A DNA stretch of 64,000 nt from a virus (taxonomy: Duplodnaviria; Heunggongvirae; Uroviricota; Caudoviricetes): IMG/VR virus record IMGVR_UViG_3300045597_000172; one strand, written 5' to 3'. The notes below the pieces were generated by a model. That model was not told the DNA's origin. It did not search any database and was given only the letters and a program-made list of their open reading frames with translations. Every line of letters begins with the position of its first letter. Within the stretch, counting starts at the first letter, position 1. This document shows, in pieces, positions 16,218 to 54,868 of this stretch. The translations under genes were made by a program, and so were the position numbers.

Positions 16218-16895
16218 CTAACGTGTCGAAACATACGCAGAAACATAAGACTCGTTATAGTTTTTGTCATTGTAAACAGCTTTTTGAATGTTGTTTAACT
16301 TATGTTTTGCAACATAATGCTTGTAAATTAAATACTTATGTCCGTTCGTATACGAAACATCAAATAACAAACCGTCACTGTCAGAAGAATAATTTAAGAA
16401 TTTAACTTCCGGACGACGGTCATTAGTCGTAACGAATGTCTTAGATTTTCCCGTATCACGATCAACGAACGCCACGCTTGCCTGTGGATTACTGAATAAG
16501 CCATTATCGTGTGTTTTAGGCGTATAATCAAACTTCGTATACTTGTCTTTACGCCAAGTCAAATACGTAGATGCTTGCTTATATTCCTGCAAATTGTGTG
16601 TTGAAATCATATTTGTAACTGGAATATACAAAAGAGCAATCGTAACTAATACTATTAAAGCCATTACCGAAATAGCTAATCCACGCCCTTTTGTTGGCAT
16701 CTTTGTAATATCCATTTCTTCCTTGAGTTCATCACCGATATTTTTAAATTTAGTTGTTTTACTTAATAATGAAAGTACAATAACCGATAAAATTGAAAAA
16801 ATTATTGCGATGCATAAGAGTGCTAAAAACGCTACTAAAAGTAACAAAAACGGATGATCCCCCAATAATATACGTAACTGTATCCAACGTAACAT
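16218..16895 (-). CDS. Membrane-anchored protein (paralog of 15584)
   Basis: MLRWIQL start at ATG 16895. NLQEYKQASTYLTWRKDKYTKFDY. Confidence 0.75.
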   Translation of the reverse strand: MLRWIQLRILLGDHPFLLLLVAFLALLCIAIIFSILSVIVLSLLSKTTKFKNIGDELKEEMDITKMPTKGRGLAISVMALIVLVTIALLYIPVTNMISTHNLQEYKQASTYLTWRKDKYTKFDYTPKTHDNGLFSNPQASVAFVDRDTGKSKTFVTTNDRRPEVKFLNYSSDSDGLLFDVSYTNGHKYLIYKHYVAKHKLNNIQKAVYNDKNYNESYVSAYVSTR

Positions 16896-20797: not shown

Positions 20798-21409
20798 TCA
20801 ATATACGAAACTCCACTTCTCACCGTAAAGACCTTCAAGAAAATCATGCTTAAATGTTTTAACCGAATCATTTACAACATCATCTGAAAGATTGATAATC
20901 CGTTTTTCATCAGTAGGATATATGCCCGCAAAAATCGAGAAACCATTATGCGTCACACTTACTTGATACGTAGAAAATCCAACATTAGAAACAAATTTAA
21001 AAAGATTTTCAAAAAGTTTATGAATAGACCTTGATAAATCTTTGAAAAGAAACAAAAACTCATGTCCCAAATCAAAACGGTCAATTAAAAGTTTATCAAA
21101 AAGTAAATCAAAAGAATTACTATCAGTAAACATCGACCGAAAATCATCTGAATCAACATGCATTAACCGTGGATCATCAAAAATTTTCCACGGAATAGCG
21201 ATTACAAACTGGCAACCACGAAGGTCATTCATCGAAATGTTTGCAAATGAACGATTGACAGCATCTTTATCCAACACAGTATGTTCAAAAGCAGTTACGT
21301 CATCTGAAAAAGGAAACGCCCTAAAAAATTTTTTATCATGATCAAAAACATCAAGCATATGTTCAGATGAAACTTTTCTCCAAAAAACTGAAACTTCTGA
21401 ATCTTTCAT
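20798..21409 (-). CDS. Hypothetical protein (paralog of 20061)
   Basis: ATG 21409 follows AAAGGAGGTG. C-terminal YQVSV...LSD...F...LYGEKWSF. Confidence 0.75.
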   Translation of the reverse strand: MKDSEVSVFWRKVSSEHMLDVFDHDKKFFRAFPFSDDVTAFEHTVLDKDAVNRSFANISMNDLRGCQFVIAIPWKIFDDPRLMHVDSDDFRSMFTDSNSFDLLFDKLLIDRFDLGHEFLFLFKDLSRSIHKLFENLFKFVSNVGFSTYQVSVTHNGFSIFAGIYPTDEKRIINLSDDVVNDSVKTFKHDFLEGLYGEKWSFVY

Positions 21410-45729: not shown

Positions 45730-45761
45730 AGACAAACGGAGCACAGCTCCGTTTTTTAGTT
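45730..45761 (+). repeat. Repeated hairpin element, copy 1
   Basis: AGACAAACGGAGCACAGCTCCGTTTTTTAGTT. Confidence 0.85.
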
Positions 45762-45798
45762 GGCGTTGCAAATTTAAAATAAAAGGGAGATTTTCGTT

Positions 45799-47666: not shown

Positions 47667-47698
47667 AGACAAACGGAGCACAGCTCCGTTTTTTAGTT
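47667..47698 (+). repeat. Repeated hairpin element, copy 2
   Basis: 32/32 identical to 45730-45761. Confidence 0.85.
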
Positions 47699-47736
47699 CG
47701 TGTTGTTACTTTTACGAATATGAGGAGGAAATCGCG

Positions 47737-48334: not shown

Positions 48335-48361
48335 AACGGAGCAAAGCTCCGTTTTTTAGTT
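48335..48361 (+). repeat. Repeated hairpin element, copy 3
   Basis: AACGGAGCAAAGCTCCGTTTTTTAGTT. Confidence 0.8.
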
Positions 48362-48406
48362 GATGTTGCGATTTCGCAATAAATAATAACCTGCGAGGTA
48401 GAAAGG

Positions 48407-48463
48407 ATGATTGAACTTTTACAATTAATCATAATCTTTATGATTATTAAAAACCTTAAATGA
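48407..48463 (+). CDS. 18-aa hydrophobic micropeptide (not in ORF track)
   Basis: MIELLQLIIIFMIIKNLK, GAGGT SD 7 nt upstream, terminator 48472-48494 directly after. Confidence 0.5.
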   Translation: MIELLQLIIIFMIIKNLK

Positions 48464-48606
48464 TAAATGCTAACCGGTCAGAGACCGGTTTTTTATTAGG
48501 TGTTGAGAAGTCAACATTTAGTTTTTGTGTTGTTGTCGTGCTTGGTTCGGTTCGAATCCGATATGGCACATTGTTTGGGGCAAATTGCCCAGAAAAGGAG
48601 AAGATC

Positions 48607-48729
48607 ATGTCAGAAAATTCAGTTGCAGTTGCGAATAAGGTTCAAGTTGTTGATGTTCACGGGGTTGTTCATTTTTTGCGTCAAGGTCAGCCGTTAGCTG
48701 ATTTAATGCGTTCAATTCGTGAAAACTAA
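48607..48729 (+). CDS. 40-aa hypothetical protein
   Basis: ATG 48607 follows AAAAGGAG. Confidence 0.55.
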   Translation: MSENSVAVANKVQVVDVHGVVHFLRQGQPLADLMRSIREN

Positions 48730-50074: not shown

Positions 50075-50530
50075 ATGTCGCTTAACATCAATGCCTCAAA
50101 ATCAGAGTTGACCCGTTTAGAAAAAGCTGAACTGGTTAACCAATTAGCAATCGGTCTGAAATCTCGCAGTGCGGGTTTTGACGATCTCGATGAGAAATGT
50201 CCAGTCGTTAAACTCCAAAACGGTCTCGAATTGCAATACGTGAAACATGTCGTACCGCTTTACTTGCAGAATACTGAGAACCCGCGCGGTTTTTATGACT
50301 GTTTATGCCAAGTTCGTCGATATGACAAACCGGTCAATGCGTACGGTCAGATCAGCACAAAATGCTTTCTCGGGATGGGCGTATTCTTAGATTCGGATAC
50401 CTTAGAAACCGTGGATACGTTAGCATCTTACGACTTTATTATTGAAAACTTGTCTGAAAAGCAAGTCGAAGAGTTAAAATTGTCGCGTGCCCTACGATTA
50501 GGCATGCTGGAAATGCACCCAGAGCGTTAA
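50075..50530 (+). CDS. Hypothetical protein
   Basis: 151 aa, GAAGG SD. Confidence 0.7.
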   Translation: MSLNINASKSELTRLEKAELVNQLAIGLKSRSAGFDDLDEKCPVVKLQNGLELQYVKHVVPLYLQNTENPRGFYDCLCQVRRYDKPVNAYGQISTKCFLGMGVFLDSDTLETVDTLASYDFIIENLSEKQVEELKLSRALRLGMLEMHPER

Positions 50531-50546
50531 TTAATTAAGTACCAGT

Positions 50547-50597
50547 TGTTCAGGCGGAATATTAGCCGCGTTCCCGGTGCGAACCCGGACTGAACAG
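50547..50597 (+). ncRNA. tRNA-like mini-element lacking an anticodon arm
   Basis: TGTTCAG/CTGAACA stem, GCGG/CCGC arm, CCGG-TGCGAAC-CCGG T-arm-like hairpin. Confidence 0.55.
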
Positions 50598-50647
50598 TCG
50601 TTGTGAAAATTAAGAAATCAATTTAAAATTTGAAAGGAAGTTTTACC

Positions 50648-51061
50648 ATGTTGGAATTAAAAATTCAAGATACTATTTTAGATAAGTTAGACGGTTATGA
50701 TCCAGTCAAAATCAACGGTGAATTGTTTGTGATTAAACATCTTCACCAAGTCGATTCGAACACTGCCAAATTAGAAATTATTACGACAAATCATAACGGT
50801 ATCAAGACCTTAAACGGAAAATATCAAGTTAAAAATGATTATGCCGAAGCCGAAGTTTTAAGCGCTGCTGAATTTGCTGATCTGGCGAGTTTCGGTCAGA
50901 TTGACAATTTGATTACTTTACTAGAACCCAATGATTACGATAAGTTTTTGCAGAACGTCATTGATTTCGGACGGATGTTCGATAATGCGCAATATCGGGT
51001 CATTCAAGTTGCCGCTAACAAAGTGCTCATGAAACTCGTGCGGATGGCAATTGAACCGTAA
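50648..51061 (+). CDS. Hypothetical protein
   Basis: ATG 50648 follows AAAGGAAG. Confidence 0.7.
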   Translation: MLELKIQDTILDKLDGYDPVKINGELFVIKHLHQVDSNTAKLEIITTNHNGIKTLNGKYQVKNDYAEAEVLSAAEFADLASFGQIDNLITLLEPNDYDKFLQNVIDFGRMFDNAQYRVIQVAANKVLMKLVRMAIEP

Positions 51062-51126
51062 TTCGTTTTGTTGTATTTACAAGGAAAAACCCATCTCACG
51101 ATTAAAATATAAAGGAGAGTGTCGTT

Positions 51127-51861
51127 ATGCGTTACGAAACCACCCAGAAGTATTATGTAGAATTATATCAAAAGTACCTTACTAAACACGGAATCATTTA
51201 TGTTAGACAAACATATCAAAATTATAGTGATCAACAAAATTTGATTGACTTGCGTCTTATTGCTGCTAACGGAGGTGTTTTTGCGCATCCCTATACACAA
51301 ATTGTTGACGGTGAATCGGTAAGTGGTTTGCCTTATTTCAGTATTGAAAAACGTGATGTTGACATTAACAGTTCTCACAATCGTGAAGCACTATTAGCAG
51401 ACTATCGAGAATACGAAAGTTTGAATGAATTATTGTATCAAGATGACCCATCTAAAATGTTATCATTTCACGGATATCTTAATAAACATTCTCAAATTGA
51501 TGTTGGTATCTTGACGAAACGCGTTGAAAATCAAAACACGTTAGTCACCCTGCTAAATCCTGCATATTTTCCCGCTAAATTCGGAATCTCAGTTGTTAAT
51601 GTTTTTGAAGAATTTGATTTCAAGGCTTTACAGGTTAATTTAAAAGTTGTTCTCGAAACTAAATCAAAATTAACAACAAACGAATTGCTAGAACTCAGTG
51701 AAAAAATTGATGGTCAAATGTCAGATGGCTGGGGCGAAGAATACGATATTGAAGAAGTTAACGAATTTCATGACGTGAATGGCTGGCAGTATGGTAATAA
51801 ACCAGATAATCCACTAGTGGAATCGACTCATAATCTTTACTATCCAGAAGACAAAAACTAA
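51127..51861 (+). CDS. Hypothetical protein with GQxSDGWGE motif
   Basis: IDGQMSDGWGEEY recalls a motif of Firmicutes ICE/phage accessory proteins. AAGGAG SD. Confidence 0.7.
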   Translation: MRYETTQKYYVELYQKYLTKHGIIYVRQTYQNYSDQQNLIDLRLIAANGGVFAHPYTQIVDGESVSGLPYFSIEKRDVDINSSHNREALLADYREYESLNELLYQDDPSKMLSFHGYLNKHSQIDVGILTKRVENQNTLVTLLNPAYFPAKFGISVVNVFEEFDFKALQVNLKVVLETKSKLTTNELLELSEKIDGQMSDGWGEEYDIEEVNEFHDVNGWQYGNKPDNPLVESTHNLYYPEDKN

Positions 51862-51877
51862 AAGGGAGTTGTTAAAG

Positions 51878-52135
51878 ATGAATCAAACTGTTATTTATAT
51901 CTATGACGCGAATAATTATCAAATCGGAAACCCACTATATCGTTGGCAATTTGCAACGCCCACATTTTATGATTTACAACAGGGTTTCTTGAAACGGTTT
52001 GGTAATCTCGTTTCGGATTATCCACGGATGTTTATGCGTAATCGAGTTCATAAAGCAACTGATTTACCGTCTTTTATTGACGCGTTGAATCGTTCCAAGT
52101 ATTTTCATTTCGAAGTGAATTCAGATTTAAAATAA
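51878..52135 (+). CDS. Hypothetical protein
   Basis: 85 aa, AAGGGAG SD. Confidence 0.65.
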   Translation: MNQTVIYIYDANNYQIGNPLYRWQFATPTFYDLQQGFLKRFGNLVSDYPRMFMRNRVHKATDLPSFIDALNRSKYFHFEVNSDLK

Positions 52136-52150
52136 AGGAGGTGTTTTCAA

Positions 52151-52261
52151 ATGGCAGAAAAAACTTGTCCAGATTGTCATGGTACAGGAATCGATTTCGG
52201 AGATGGCGGTCAATGCGACCGTTGTGACGGAACTGGTGAAATTTTTGAAAAAGATTATTAA
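52151..52261 (+). CDS. 36-aa DnaJ-type CxxCxGxG zinc-finger microprotein (not in ORF track)
   Basis: MAEKTCPDCHGTGIDFGDGGQCDRCDGTGEIFEKDY, AAAGGAGGTG SD. Confidence 0.75.
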   Translation: MAEKTCPDCHGTGIDFGDGGQCDRCDGTGEIFEKDY

Positions 52262-52276
52262 AGGAGGATTTTTAAG

Positions 52277-52651
52277 ATGATTGCGGTTAAAGAAATTAAT
52301 GCACGTATCGTTGCGTTTCCCAATCCAAAATATGATTTGTTACTAACTAACTTGAGCGAAATTGTAACAGCTCGCTATGTTGTTAACGAAGAAGTTCAAG
52401 CAGATCAGCAAATTAAAATTTTAGTGGATACCGCACCTCGTGGCGGTATTCGTGGCGAACGTTTTCGAGAGATGACGCTTCTTGGTGTTAGTCATCAAAT
52501 TAAAGGTTATCGTGCCATCAAGAACGAAGATGTTTCGGAAGTTTTACAAACGATTTTCGATCAAAAGTTACTAAAACTACATGAAACTAATAAAATCCAT
52601 TTATCGTTGTCTGATTGGGCATACGTTAAGTTACATGCAGAGAAAGAATAG
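52277..52651 (+). CDS. Hypothetical protein
   Basis: 124 aa, AAAGGAGG SD. Confidence 0.75.
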   Translation: MIAVKEINARIVAFPNPKYDLLLTNLSEIVTARYVVNEEVQADQQIKILVDTAPRGGIRGERFREMTLLGVSHQIKGYRAIKNEDVSEVLQTIFDQKLLKLHETNKIHLSLSDWAYVKLHAEKE

Positions 52652-52701
52652 AAAAAATATGGTTTCGATTTACGTCATGAATATTTTAAAGTGAAGTAAA
52701 T

Positions 52702-52729
52702 CAAACGGAGCATCCCTCCGTTTTTTATT
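52702..52729 (+). repeat. Repeated hairpin element, copy 4 (diverged loop)
   Basis: CAAACGGAGCATCCCTCCGTTTTTTATT. Confidence 0.75.
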
Positions 52730-52757
52730 TTGTGTCGGCATCTGTCCGGCACTTTTT

Positions 52758-52869
52758 TGTTCCATAGCTCAACGGTAGAGTAGTATGCGGCAGACGACAG
52801 TCCAATAAATCCATGAGAATTGGTCGGACACTGGAAATACCGATGTCGGTTCGAATCCGGCTGGAACAA
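52758..52869 (+). tRNA. tRNA-like gene with intact acceptor, D and T arms and a 50-nt expanded anticodon region (no assignable anticodon)
   Basis: TGTTCCA/TGGAACA, TA, GCTC-AACGGTA-GAGT, GTAT/ATAC, GTCGG-TTCGAAT-CCGGC. No encoded CCA. Confidence 0.75.
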
Positions 52870-52905
52870 TTCAAAAATACAGATATGCGAAAGGATTAGA
52901 TTGCA

Positions 52906-53505
52906 ATGGAATATTATTATGGTCAACCAGATGAAAAAGATTATTTGACAGTTTCAAAACCTTTATCAAAAGAAGAACTTACTCCATTTTTAGAAGAAAA
53001 ACAGCTATTAATCAATGGTAATCTAAATGATCCTGTTCAATTACCGCCCAAAATGAAAGCTCGAATAATCGATTCCTTATATAAAAATCCAGCGAAATTA
53101 GAAGCTGCATGTGACTCAAACAATTGGAAAAACTTGTTTGTATTGATAACAGCGTTGGGTGCAACATACCGTTGTACATCATATATAAAAGTCGAAAACA
53201 ATAATGATTTTACATTATTATTTACCGAAGGTGGAATCAACTATAGACCGTTACATGAAGTCTTTGCGTATGACCAGATAGTATGCCAAGTCAATGAACA
53301 TAAAGTAAGACGAAATAAACCTGCAAAAGTTGACTTAGTGAGTTTTGTATCCAAAGATTTAGACAAAAGTCCAGAAATACGCAATATATACATGGATCAT
53401 GAACATTGTGCTTATCCTCTTGATAAACAAAAAGTTCTTAAATATCAAAAAGCAGATGCGTATTATGCCAGAAATATTCAAATAAAGAAAACGGAGGAAT
53501 TTTAA
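52906..53505 (+). CDS. Hypothetical protein
   Basis: 199 aa, AAAGGA SD. Confidence 0.7.
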   Translation: MEYYYGQPDEKDYLTVSKPLSKEELTPFLEEKQLLINGNLNDPVQLPPKMKARIIDSLYKNPAKLEAACDSNNWKNLFVLITALGATYRCTSYIKVENNNDFTLLFTEGGINYRPLHEVFAYDQIVCQVNEHKVRRNKPAKVDLVSFVSKDLDKSPEIRNIYMDHEHCAYPLDKQKVLKYQKADAYYARNIQIKKTEEF

Positions 53506-53506
53506 A

Positions 53507-54868
53507 ATGTCATTACATGAAGGTTATTTTCCATCAATGAAAGAATTGAAGTTGGATCGTCAAGCTGCTGAGCAGTTTGCGACAGATGCTGAAAAGGAAA
53601 CAGAAAAACAACATAACAAACATGTCTTGTTTGGTCGAAACGTTATTTCACCAACCATGGGCAGTTACGGTGACAGCGATTTGGGTGCGTCGTTACGTAA
53701 TCGTTATCGTGAACTCAACTCACAACTTCAGCAACAAGCTAAATATCTTGAAGACACTTCTAATAAGTTTAAATTATTGGAATATCAATCGAAAGAAGTT
53801 AGCGAAACCGAAATGACTGAATATATGGCCAGTCGTGTTGCATTCGATAATGATCGCCAAAAATTGAGTGAACTCGACGCACTAATCGAACGTGGATTCG
53901 GTTTTGAAGACGTCAATGACGATAACTATCACCGAGCACTGTACAATCCTGATACGTTCTCGTTCTGGTTTCCAAGACTGTTATCTGCGGCTAAAACTCA
54001 GGATTTCTTTAAGATTCCCGCTACGAAATACTTAACGTTACCGCAATCGATTATGCAGTATTTACATCACGATTGGAGTGCCGAAACTAACCGCAAATCA
54101 CGGAGTGCATTGAACAAACTGTTGTTCGATACGTTTGAACTTGACGTTCACAAAGAATACTTCTTCAAAACTGGTTTGTTTTCCGGGAAGTTCGAATTCC
54201 AAAATGCACATATCGATGATCCTGCGGCAATCGGTGATTACCTGCACGTTGTCAGTAACGAAGCCCAAATGGTTGGTGCCGCAGCAAGTAACGACATGGT
54301 TGTTCGTGAATGGATTCCCGATCCAGAAAATCGCCCTACTATTTATGATGGTATGCCGTTACGTACGGAATTCAGAGCATTCATCGATGCTGATTTGCAT
54401 CACGTGATTGATGTAGTCCCGTACTGGAATAATAAAAAAGTTGAAGATACGTTAAACATGATGCACCGTACTCATATCGGAAATCAAAACATGGAACAAG
54501 ATGCAAAAGCCTATATAAAGGCTAAACCGATTCTTGACCGTGAATTTGCCGAAAACAAATCGTTGGTCATGGCAAAATTACAAGACGTTGTCGATAAGTT
54601 GGCATTGTCTGGTTGCTGGAGTCTGGACGTTATGAAATCAGGCGATGACTTTTACTTGATTGATATGGCAACCATGGCTACGAGTGCATTAACTGATACA
54701 GCTGATAAGGAGGCCCTTTTAAACGATATGCTGTTACGTAAATCCAAGAAGTTACCAGCTCAAATGCCATTTGAAACAAATTGGAAATTTGCGGATGATC
54801 CCGAAACGATTATGGACGCCTATGACAAATTACCACAACCGGCTGATCTGAAAAAATTAGAAGATTGA
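53507..54868 (+). CDS. ATP-grasp fold protein (R2K/Cdc123-like, phage/MGE type)
   Basis: FFKTGLFSGKFEF, MVVREWI, TEFRAFID, WSLDVM...FYLIDMA. Confidence 0.65.
   Translation: MSLHEGYFPSMKELKLDRQAAEQFATDAEKETEKQHNKHVLFGRNVISPTMGSYGDSDLGASLRNRYRELNSQLQQQAKYLEDTSNKFKLLEYQSKEVSETEMTEYMASRVAFDNDRQKLSELDALIERGFGFEDVNDDNYHRALYNPDTFSFWFPRLLSAAKTQDFFKIPATKYLTLPQSIMQYLHHDWSAETNRKSRSALNKLLFDTFELDVHKEYFFKTGLFSGKFEFQNAHIDDPAAIGDYLHVVSNEAQMVGAAASNDMVVREWIPDPENRPTIYDGMPLRTEFRAFIDADLHHVIDVVPYWNNKKVEDTLNMMHRTHIGNQNMEQDAKAYIKAKPILDREFAENKSLVMAKLQDVVDKLALSGCWSLDVMKSGDDFYLIDMATMATSALTDTADKEALLNDMLLRKSKKLPAQMPFETNWKFADDPETIMDAYDKLPQPADLKKLED

Follow-up and report, generated by a model that had tools for sequence, protein, structure and literature searches.

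The window analysed here, the whole 64,000-nucleotide (nt) stretch of the Caudoviricetes record IMGVR_UViG_3300045597_000172, carries a block of small, co-oriented plus-strand genes without Pfam or PHROG assignment. Set between these genes are two short sequences, element 1 and element 2, that resemble transfer RNAs (tRNAs) devoid of an anticodon (Table 1). As an earlier note on this DNA had stated, both are intergenic, lie in the sense orientation and begin with TGTTC. The proteins of the window also occur on a contig of 236,971 nt, and two other sequencing runs yielded DNA that is 100% identical to it (L001 and L002); runs SRR16379729 and SRR35178714 contain the identical DNA. A comparison with relatives from other assemblies argues that both elements are real, functional, non-decoding tRNA mimics under selection. 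In element 2, a conserved module takes the place of the anticodon loop.

Table 1. Elements, their parts, relatives and immediate neighbours. Positions without a prefix refer to the window, those with an L prefix to other contigs; bp, base pairs; aa, amino acids.
Feature	Position	Strand	Basis or remark
Element 2, full tRNA-like RNA	52758..52869	+	RF00005 covariance-model match and stem conservation
Element 2 acceptor, 7 bp	52758-52764/52862-52868	+	
Element 2 D arm, 4 bp	52767-52781	+	GCUC/AACGGUA/GAGU
Element 2 anticodon stem, 4 bp	52783-52786/52837-52840	+	GUAU/AUAC
Conserved module in place of the anticodon loop, 48 nt	52788..52835	+	Flanked by G31 (52787) and A39 (52836)
Element 2 variable loop, 4 nt	52841-52844	+	
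Element 2 T arm, 5 bp	52845-52861	+	GUCGG/UUCGAAU/CCGGC
Element 2 discriminator A	52869	+	CCA not encoded
Element 2 ortholog	L010:1242-1353 (= L011)		2/112 nt differ from window; surrounding block 73.6% identical
Element 2 ortholog	L034:10470-10581 (= L035, L036)		5/112 nt differ; surrounding block 83.8% identical
Element 2 ortholog	L078:10491-10602 (= L079)		4/112 nt differ; surrounding block 74.8% identical
Paralog (par2)	L034:19110-19224		Second tRNA-like gene; module identical in position and length
Element 1, mini tRNA-like fold	50547..50597	+	Fold z = -2.95 against shuffles; compensatory changes
Element 1 closing (acceptor-like) stem, 7 bp	50547-50553/50590-50596	+	
Element 1 stub hairpin, 4 bp, 8-nt loop	50554-50569	+	GCGG/AAUAUUAG/CCGC
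Element 1 T-like arm	50573-50589	+	CCCGG/UGCGAAC/CCGGA, one C.A mismatch; discriminator G 50597
Element 1 orthologs	L078:8293-8342, L032:9477-9526		Same slot between 151-aa and 137-aa genes
Third mini tRNA-like minihelix	48527..48569	+	T arm (U)UCGG/UUCGAAU/CCGA(U); acceptor registers 48527 or 48534
Three mini elements just past the window	L003:9459-9501, 16671-16721, 20947-20994		Window-equivalent 67882, 75094, 79370
Two tandem terminator-like hairpins	52703..52757	+	Terminator scan; directly upstream of element 2
124-aa gene, conserved neighbour of element 2	52277..52651	+	Weak RnlB antitoxin resemblance

When the region 50400-53000 was scanned with cmscan, the tRNA model RF00005 matched element 2 on the plus strand over its entire length with 43.5 bits (E 2.5e-7). 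This lies above the gathering score of 29 and places element 2 within the tRNA family; 52 nt are aligned where the model has 11. Default ARAGORN and Rfam scans of the whole window, at gathering as well as E-value thresholds, missed the element because the insert defeats their filters. The residues of the elbow and of the tertiary contacts are kept (U8, A9, A14, G18G19, G53-C61 and the A15-U48 pair).

In place of the anticodon loop, G31 and A39 enclose 48 nt that start with CGGCAGACGACAG, end with CACUGGA and hold UAAAUCC and GGUC at the centre. The earlier note had seen correctly that the anticodon segment is replaced, but its insert of 50 nt (52787-52836) has to be trimmed at both ends. Its CCAAT/ATTGG stem within the insert did not hold up, as one pair is broken in the ortholog of L078 and the paralog described below has no counterpart. 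A decoding tRNA has a 7-nt loop with U33 and a purine at position 37. Element 2 provides no such loop, neither directly nor after removal of one contiguous insert. It thus matches the tRNA model, and lacks both the features of a decoding tRNA and the defining features of each alternative family for which tests were run.

Relatives were located through the downstream 453-aa and the upstream 124-aa genes (69-87% identity) in Logan, ENA and JGI assemblies. Three of them have element 2 in the same slot, after the 124-aa gene and a double terminator, with few differences from the window (Table 1). In all, four of the six lineages with the 124-aa gene also possess element 2; it is absent from the two others (L032/L033 and L080). 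Among the variants the tRNA body has eight substitutions, four in stems and four at variable loop positions. All four stem substitutions preserve pairing (C-G to U.G twice, G.U to G-C, G-C to G.U), none of the eight hits a universal tRNA position, and each of the 20 body pairs is standard in the five family sequences (window, L010, L034, L078 and the paralog). The module has three substitutions in total across the four sequence variants, the window included. The adjacent terminators have conserved stems and loops that differ between window and relatives at 4-5 of 7 nt, and similarity falls sharply on both sides of the terminator-plus-tRNA block. Because element 2 is conserved and its stem changes keep the pairs, a decaying pseudogene is excluded on comparative grounds. 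An ordinary tRNA decaying without compensatory changes, the case that the earlier note had set against its own proposal, is hence not what we find. Its proposal of selected non-decoding mimics agrees with conservation well above that of the flanks, with the pair-keeping changes and with the intact elbow nucleotides.

The paralog in L034 combines the same module with a different tRNA body. Its acceptor (GGUUCAG/CUGAACC), its anticodon stem (CCUA/UAGG) and its T stem differ from those of element 2, and 8 of the 20 body pairs are changed on both sides. The tertiary (Levitt) pair 15-48 is A-U in element 2 and G-C in the paralog; from this swap it follows that the L-shape is selected in both bodies. 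The two modules are equal in length and have an identical 13-nt motif at the 5' end and an identical 7-nt motif at the 3' end, and apart from UAAAUCC and GGUC the centre differs. Since the module is common to two tRNA bodies, with identical ends and equal lengths, the module itself is the selected part. The view that the two elements represent two ways of losing an anticodon, as put forward in the earlier note, needs revision: rather than being a decayed tRNA, element 2 has gained a specific module that a second tRNA body also carries. On RF00005 the paralog reaches 19.7 bits, which is under the gathering score. It is located just after a gene for the RNA ligase RtcB and near genes for tRNA-Asn and tRNA-Thr. 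The order in L034:17489-19224 is tRNA-Asn, tRNA-Thr, RtcB (split by a frameshift into 88 and 321 aa) and the paralog, then a dUTPase gene; a terminator and a 32-nt palindrome precede the paralog.

In the module, the triplet following CAG pairs with that preceding CACUG, as UCC/GGA in element 2 and as CAU/UUG in the paralog. This exchange amounts to two compensatory pairs, and the helix is the sole one in the module with any support. An RNAalifold consensus of the module proved unreliable with five sequences. K-turn, box C/D, sarcin-ricin mimic and H-type pseudoknot were examined by hand and rejected, as a defining residue varies or the paralog does not have it, and Rfam matched no family to the module at E<=10. 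The module was also rejected as an antisense RNA, since the complementary stretches are only 10-mers, which is the chance level.

Element 1 starts 16 nt past the stop codon of a 151-aa gene. The 7-bp acceptor-like stem, the 4-bp arm and the TGCGAAC loop, without an anticodon arm, are as the earlier note had described them, and the fold is more stable than that of shuffled sequences (Table 1). The T-like arm is contiguous with the 3' strand of the closing stem, the arrangement of T arm and acceptor in a tRNA. The two orthologs have the same loops and the same closing stem within diverged flanks. A stub G-C is replaced by U-A, the C.A mismatch of the T stem by U-A, and one C-G by U.G; on this evidence the T-arm register is preferable to the GNRA hairpin of the minimum-energy fold. 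A promoter-like site after element 1 falls within a 19-nt insertion that is absent from the relatives, so that element 1 lies inside a short inter-cistronic spacer. The closing stem UGUUCAG/CUGAACA matches the acceptor of the paralog at six of seven pairs and that of element 2 at five of seven, and common descent of element 1, element 2 and the paralog is plausible from these sequences.

Further mini elements accompany element 1. The minihelix at 48527-48569 is preceded by a terminator and followed by a gene that starts near 48607, and is conserved (L078:5409-5451 and L032) with an acceptor U.G replaced by C-G; the overlapping 89-aa open reading frame at 48460-48729 is probably not a gene. The three elements of L003 are found 0-6 nt from the stop codons of MoxR-like, UvrD-like and 795-aa genes (1 nt after, 6 nt after and overlapping), and the one at L003:9459-9502 scores 22.8 bits on RF00005. 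We also searched 80,130 nt, i.e. the window and 16 kb beyond, with a descriptor (T-loop U[UG]CRA[ACU][CU], G53-C61, at least 4/5 T-stem pairs, 7/7 acceptor pairs, length <=125 nt). It returned six elements, all intergenic and on the plus strand (48527-48569, 50547-50596, 52758-52868 and the three beyond the window), compared with a mean of 0.21 and a maximum of 2 in 100 block shuffles, a contrast that is somewhat flattering as the descriptor was chosen after the elements had been seen. Stub or linker loops ending in GG accompany UUC T-loops, and those ending in AG accompany UGC T-loops (three cases), which hints at a preserved elbow contact.

Regarding the surroundings of element 2, the U-tract of the second terminator runs into its first base. 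At its 3' end (52870/52871) the similarity to L010, L034 and L078 stops exactly, which marks a mosaic junction. The orphan gene that follows in the window (52906-53505, 199 aa) occurs only in the window's mobile element; in L010 and L078 a 456-aa gene follows directly. Next in the window is the 453-aa gene (53507-54868), whose family has weak matches to R2K-clade ATP-grasp proteins, matches phrog_12834 and has relatives in SPbeta-like Staphylococcus phages. A gene for a CCA-adding enzyme (PolyA_pol and HD) at L031:847-2193 is located two genes upstream of a relative of the 453-aa gene with 49% identity. Elsewhere in the small-gene block, a hairpin sequence of about 32 nt is repeated at 45730-45769, 47667-47705 and 48335-48383, and recurs with 86-97% identity in L078 and L032.

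Neither the tRNA halves nor the module had an exact-pattern match in IMG/VR. A scan for the pair of module motifs gave one match in IMG/VR and 40 in JGI metagenomes, all of them due to chance and mostly GC-rich, coding-looking and without tRNA context. The module had a single chance match in 401 Lactobacillaceae genomes and none in PLSDB and INPHARED. Protein-anchored scans of IMG/VR yielded no relatives, and a scan of genome contigs yielded only distant homologs of the 453-aa protein without an adjoining tRNA-like element. From the sequences covered, the module family seems confined to this group of mobile elements, and we found no earlier report of a module-bearing tRNA type.

Unrelated phage contigs in IMG/VR (L012-L023) also encode tRNA bodies that have the same D arm and an anticodon region interrupted by an insert of 30-60 nt. 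In the tRNA-Lys(CUU)-like gene of L021, removal of 31 nt restores the canonical loop CUCUUAA. A Thr(UGU)-like stem-loop is preserved behind the insert in L012 and L014; a canonical loop is lacking in L015, L017, L019 and L023. L017 and element 2 have a layout in common (4-bp stem, G CGG ... A, 4-bp stem, CGAU). Given such unrelated inserts, the principle of a tRNA body plus insert may be widespread.

As to function, we infer that both elements would be transcribed along with the small-gene block of the plus strand. The mini elements (element 1, the minihelix at 48527-48569 and the three beyond the window) would most likely recruit RNase P on the 5' side and RNase Z on the 3' side. These tRNA-end enzymes would then cut the polycistronic mRNA or cap its ends at gene spacers, in the manner of t-elements. 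By this analogy, the most likely role of element 1 is to mark mRNA for cutting. Such a processing tag fits element 1 well and leaves the conservation of the module in element 2 unexplained. Since processing by RNase P and RNase Z needs no anticodon arm, the strictly conserved module would have a function of its own. We propose that the tRNA body of element 2 most likely serves as a scaffold for processing and stability, excised by RNase P and RNase Z and possibly extended by CCA. The module would be an effector with a protein or an RNA as its binding partner, and its setting may be counter-defence or RNA repair. Whether element 2 is indeed a tRNA-scaffolded effector RNA, a counter-defence role being included, appears to us about evenly balanced.

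Several points weigh against these proposals. The idea of scaffold and effector was reached by exclusion, as a module is not required for processing alone. Taken by itself, the module shows no more stable folding than shuffled sequence (z +1.08), only one module helix, of 6 bp, shows covariation, from the single comparison with the paralog, and no complementarity of at least 11 nt that might point to a partner is present within the window. Because two terminators directly precede element 2 and no recognisable promoter is evident, its expression would need read-through or an unrecognised promoter. Element 1 and the minihelix at 48527-48569, scanned on stretches of about 70 nt, have no RF00005 match even at E<=10; the tRNA-likeness of both rests on their architecture, and that of element 1 also on its sister elements.

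Alternatively, element 2 and the paralog could be intron-bearing tRNA genes, from which an unknown nuclease excises the module and an RtcB-type ligase joins the halves to give a working, perhaps unusual, tRNA. The identical insert position in two different tRNA bodies would suit a mobile or inherited intron, the paralog adjoins an RtcB gene and true tRNA-Asn and tRNA-Thr genes, the tRNA-Lys(CUU)-like gene of L021 regains its loop upon removal of the insert, and small, highly conserved 'enigmatic' introns are on record for phage tRNA genes (PMC6784885). Nevertheless, only G31 and A39 flank the module in element 2, and direct reading of the conserved ends gives G or A at position 33, never U, in every exon/intron split. 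For element 2, ARAGORN in its intron mode proposed tRNA-Asp(gtc) with a 34-nt intron at 30/31, at the cost of G33, an extra arm of 12 nt and a mismatched A.C pair. It proposed Ala(ggc) and an intron of 43 nt for the L078 ortholog, and Met(cat) and an intron of 22 nt for the paralog. These conflicting calls are artefacts, because copies of one element cannot have three different anticodons. We also looked, by hand and without a search program, for a bulge-helix-bulge, i.e. two 3-nt bulges with a 4-bp helix between them at the exon-intron borders. Pairing beside the anticodon stem gave instead an internal loop (11 x 3) and then a helix of 3+3 bp that is interrupted by a 2-nt bulge. Neither a group I intron nor a small self-cleaving ribozyme was matched by Rfam at E<=10 on the module or the region, and a group I intron would be far longer than 48 nt. 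Moreover, the RtcB gene next to the paralog is frameshift-split in that contig, and the DNA fetched for the window's mobile element contains no RtcB gene. A known intron that restores an anticodon, which the earlier note had named as a counter-case, is thus not in evidence, and we consider splicing an unlikely explanation.

Both elements might also act as decoys or sponges (or inhibitors) for tRNA-targeting defences or toxins, such as anticodon nucleases or acceptor-end modifiers. In both, the elbow and the acceptor stem, features recognised by many tRNA-binding proteins, are intact. The block of small orphan genes is typical of early or anti-defence regions, and related mobile elements carry tRNA genes, RtcB and a CCA-adding enzyme. 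A weak resemblance links the 124-aa gene upstream of element 2 to RnlB, the antitoxin of the RNase RnlA, but the PF15933 matches of five family members (E 1.4e-4 to 0.07) are all below the gathering score, a profile search of PDB gave no match to RnlB or Dmd, and an AlphaFold model with pLDDT 33 provides no support either. A decoy for an anticodon nuclease would, furthermore, be expected to keep an anticodon-like loop, and no tRNA-targeting system was identified in the window's mobile element, which makes this role rather improbable for either element. It is more doubtful still that element 2 is a mere punctuation signal with a passenger module, a recently exchanged block or a DNA-level recombination site: the mosaic junction at its 3' end and the differing gene content downstream would fit, yet a passenger would drift, whereas the module has 3 changes in 48 nt over four variants, compared with the 4-5 of 7 nt in the terminator loops, and keeps identical ends in the paralog despite the diverged tRNA body, and a DNA site would not require substitutions in the body to keep RNA pairing.

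Thinking of element 2 as a tRNA-scaffolded effector RNA, we tentatively raise the possibility that it and the paralog stand for a new natural class of 'tRNA-scaffold' RNAs, in which the tRNA enzymes of the host excise and stabilise a 48-nt effector acting on a factor of the host or of the mobile element, e.g. a defence nuclease or an RNA-repair or ligation pathway; or else that the two are the first instances of tRNA splicing by a new bacterial route, with an unknown nuclease and RtcB.

To our knowledge, tRNA mimicry outside translation is known from a handful of cases, namely transfer-messenger RNA (tmRNA), Y RNAs, t-elements and viral 3' ends. Literature searches revealed no published description of mini tRNA-like elements for phages or plasmids. 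In plant mitochondria, t-elements are small non-decoding tRNA-like folds at mRNA borders, where RNase P and RNase Z make the transcript ends (Forner et al. 2007, PMC1920247). The mini elements share this architecture and placement: an acceptor-like stem on a T-arm-like hairpin, in sense orientation, at gene borders and with compensatory change. Whereas t-elements are organellar, the mini elements belong to a bacterial mobile element and their cleavage is predicted; the stub hairpin and the UGCGAAC loop set element 1 apart. The mini elements add to the evidence for punctuation of operons by miniature tRNA top halves in large bacterial mobile elements. If so, the tRNA-end enzymes of the host become part of mobile-element gene expression.

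The Y RNA YrlA is a tRNA mimic that RNase P cleaves and to which CCA is added (Chen et al. 2014, PMC4201824). It is non-decoding, has acceptor-, D- and T-like arms and a functional stem in place of the anticodon arm, and is often encoded beside rtcB (PMC4201824). Its topology is the reverse of that of element 2: the termini of YrlA lie in the Ro-binding stem and a loop closes its acceptor, whereas the termini of element 2 are at the acceptor and the module is closed. Element 2 was rejected as a Y RNA, since the Ro-binding motif GNCGAA(N)G reads GUCGGA in element 2 and has nothing similar in the paralog, and no Rfam match was obtained; Pfam annotation of the called genes in the fetched loci includes no Ro60/TROVE. 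The tRNA genes of Lak megaphages contain conserved 'enigmatic' introns (Devoto et al. 2019, PMC6784885) which, like the module, are short non-group-I inserts in tRNA genes of a large mobile genome and near-identical between variants. Removal of the Lak inserts gives a classifiable anticodon, in contrast to element 2, and here the same insert is found in two tRNA bodies.

tmRNA resembles element 2 in having a tRNA-like domain with the anticodon arm replaced by other RNA. It was rejected as an identity, because ARAGORN makes no tmRNA call, G3:U70 is missing (the 3-70 pair is U-A in all copies) and 112 nt compare with about 350. A tmRNA-like tag frame was rejected as well, as a short reading frame in the module stops at one point in element 2 and at another in the paralog. 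The same layout as in element 2 is reportedly used in the tRNA scaffolds of Ponchon and Dardel, from 2007, laboratory constructs in which foreign RNA is put into the anticodon stem of a tRNA for processing and stability; we know of no natural bacterial counterpart. With a full tRNA body and, at the anticodon site, a sequence-conserved module that is common to two bodies, element 2 is a new variant of tRNA mimicry. If the module were an intron, it would reveal an undescribed tRNA splicing route in bacteria or their mobile elements. If it were an effector, mobile elements would have a new kind of RNA in element 2, the natural equivalent of the engineered tRNA scaffold.

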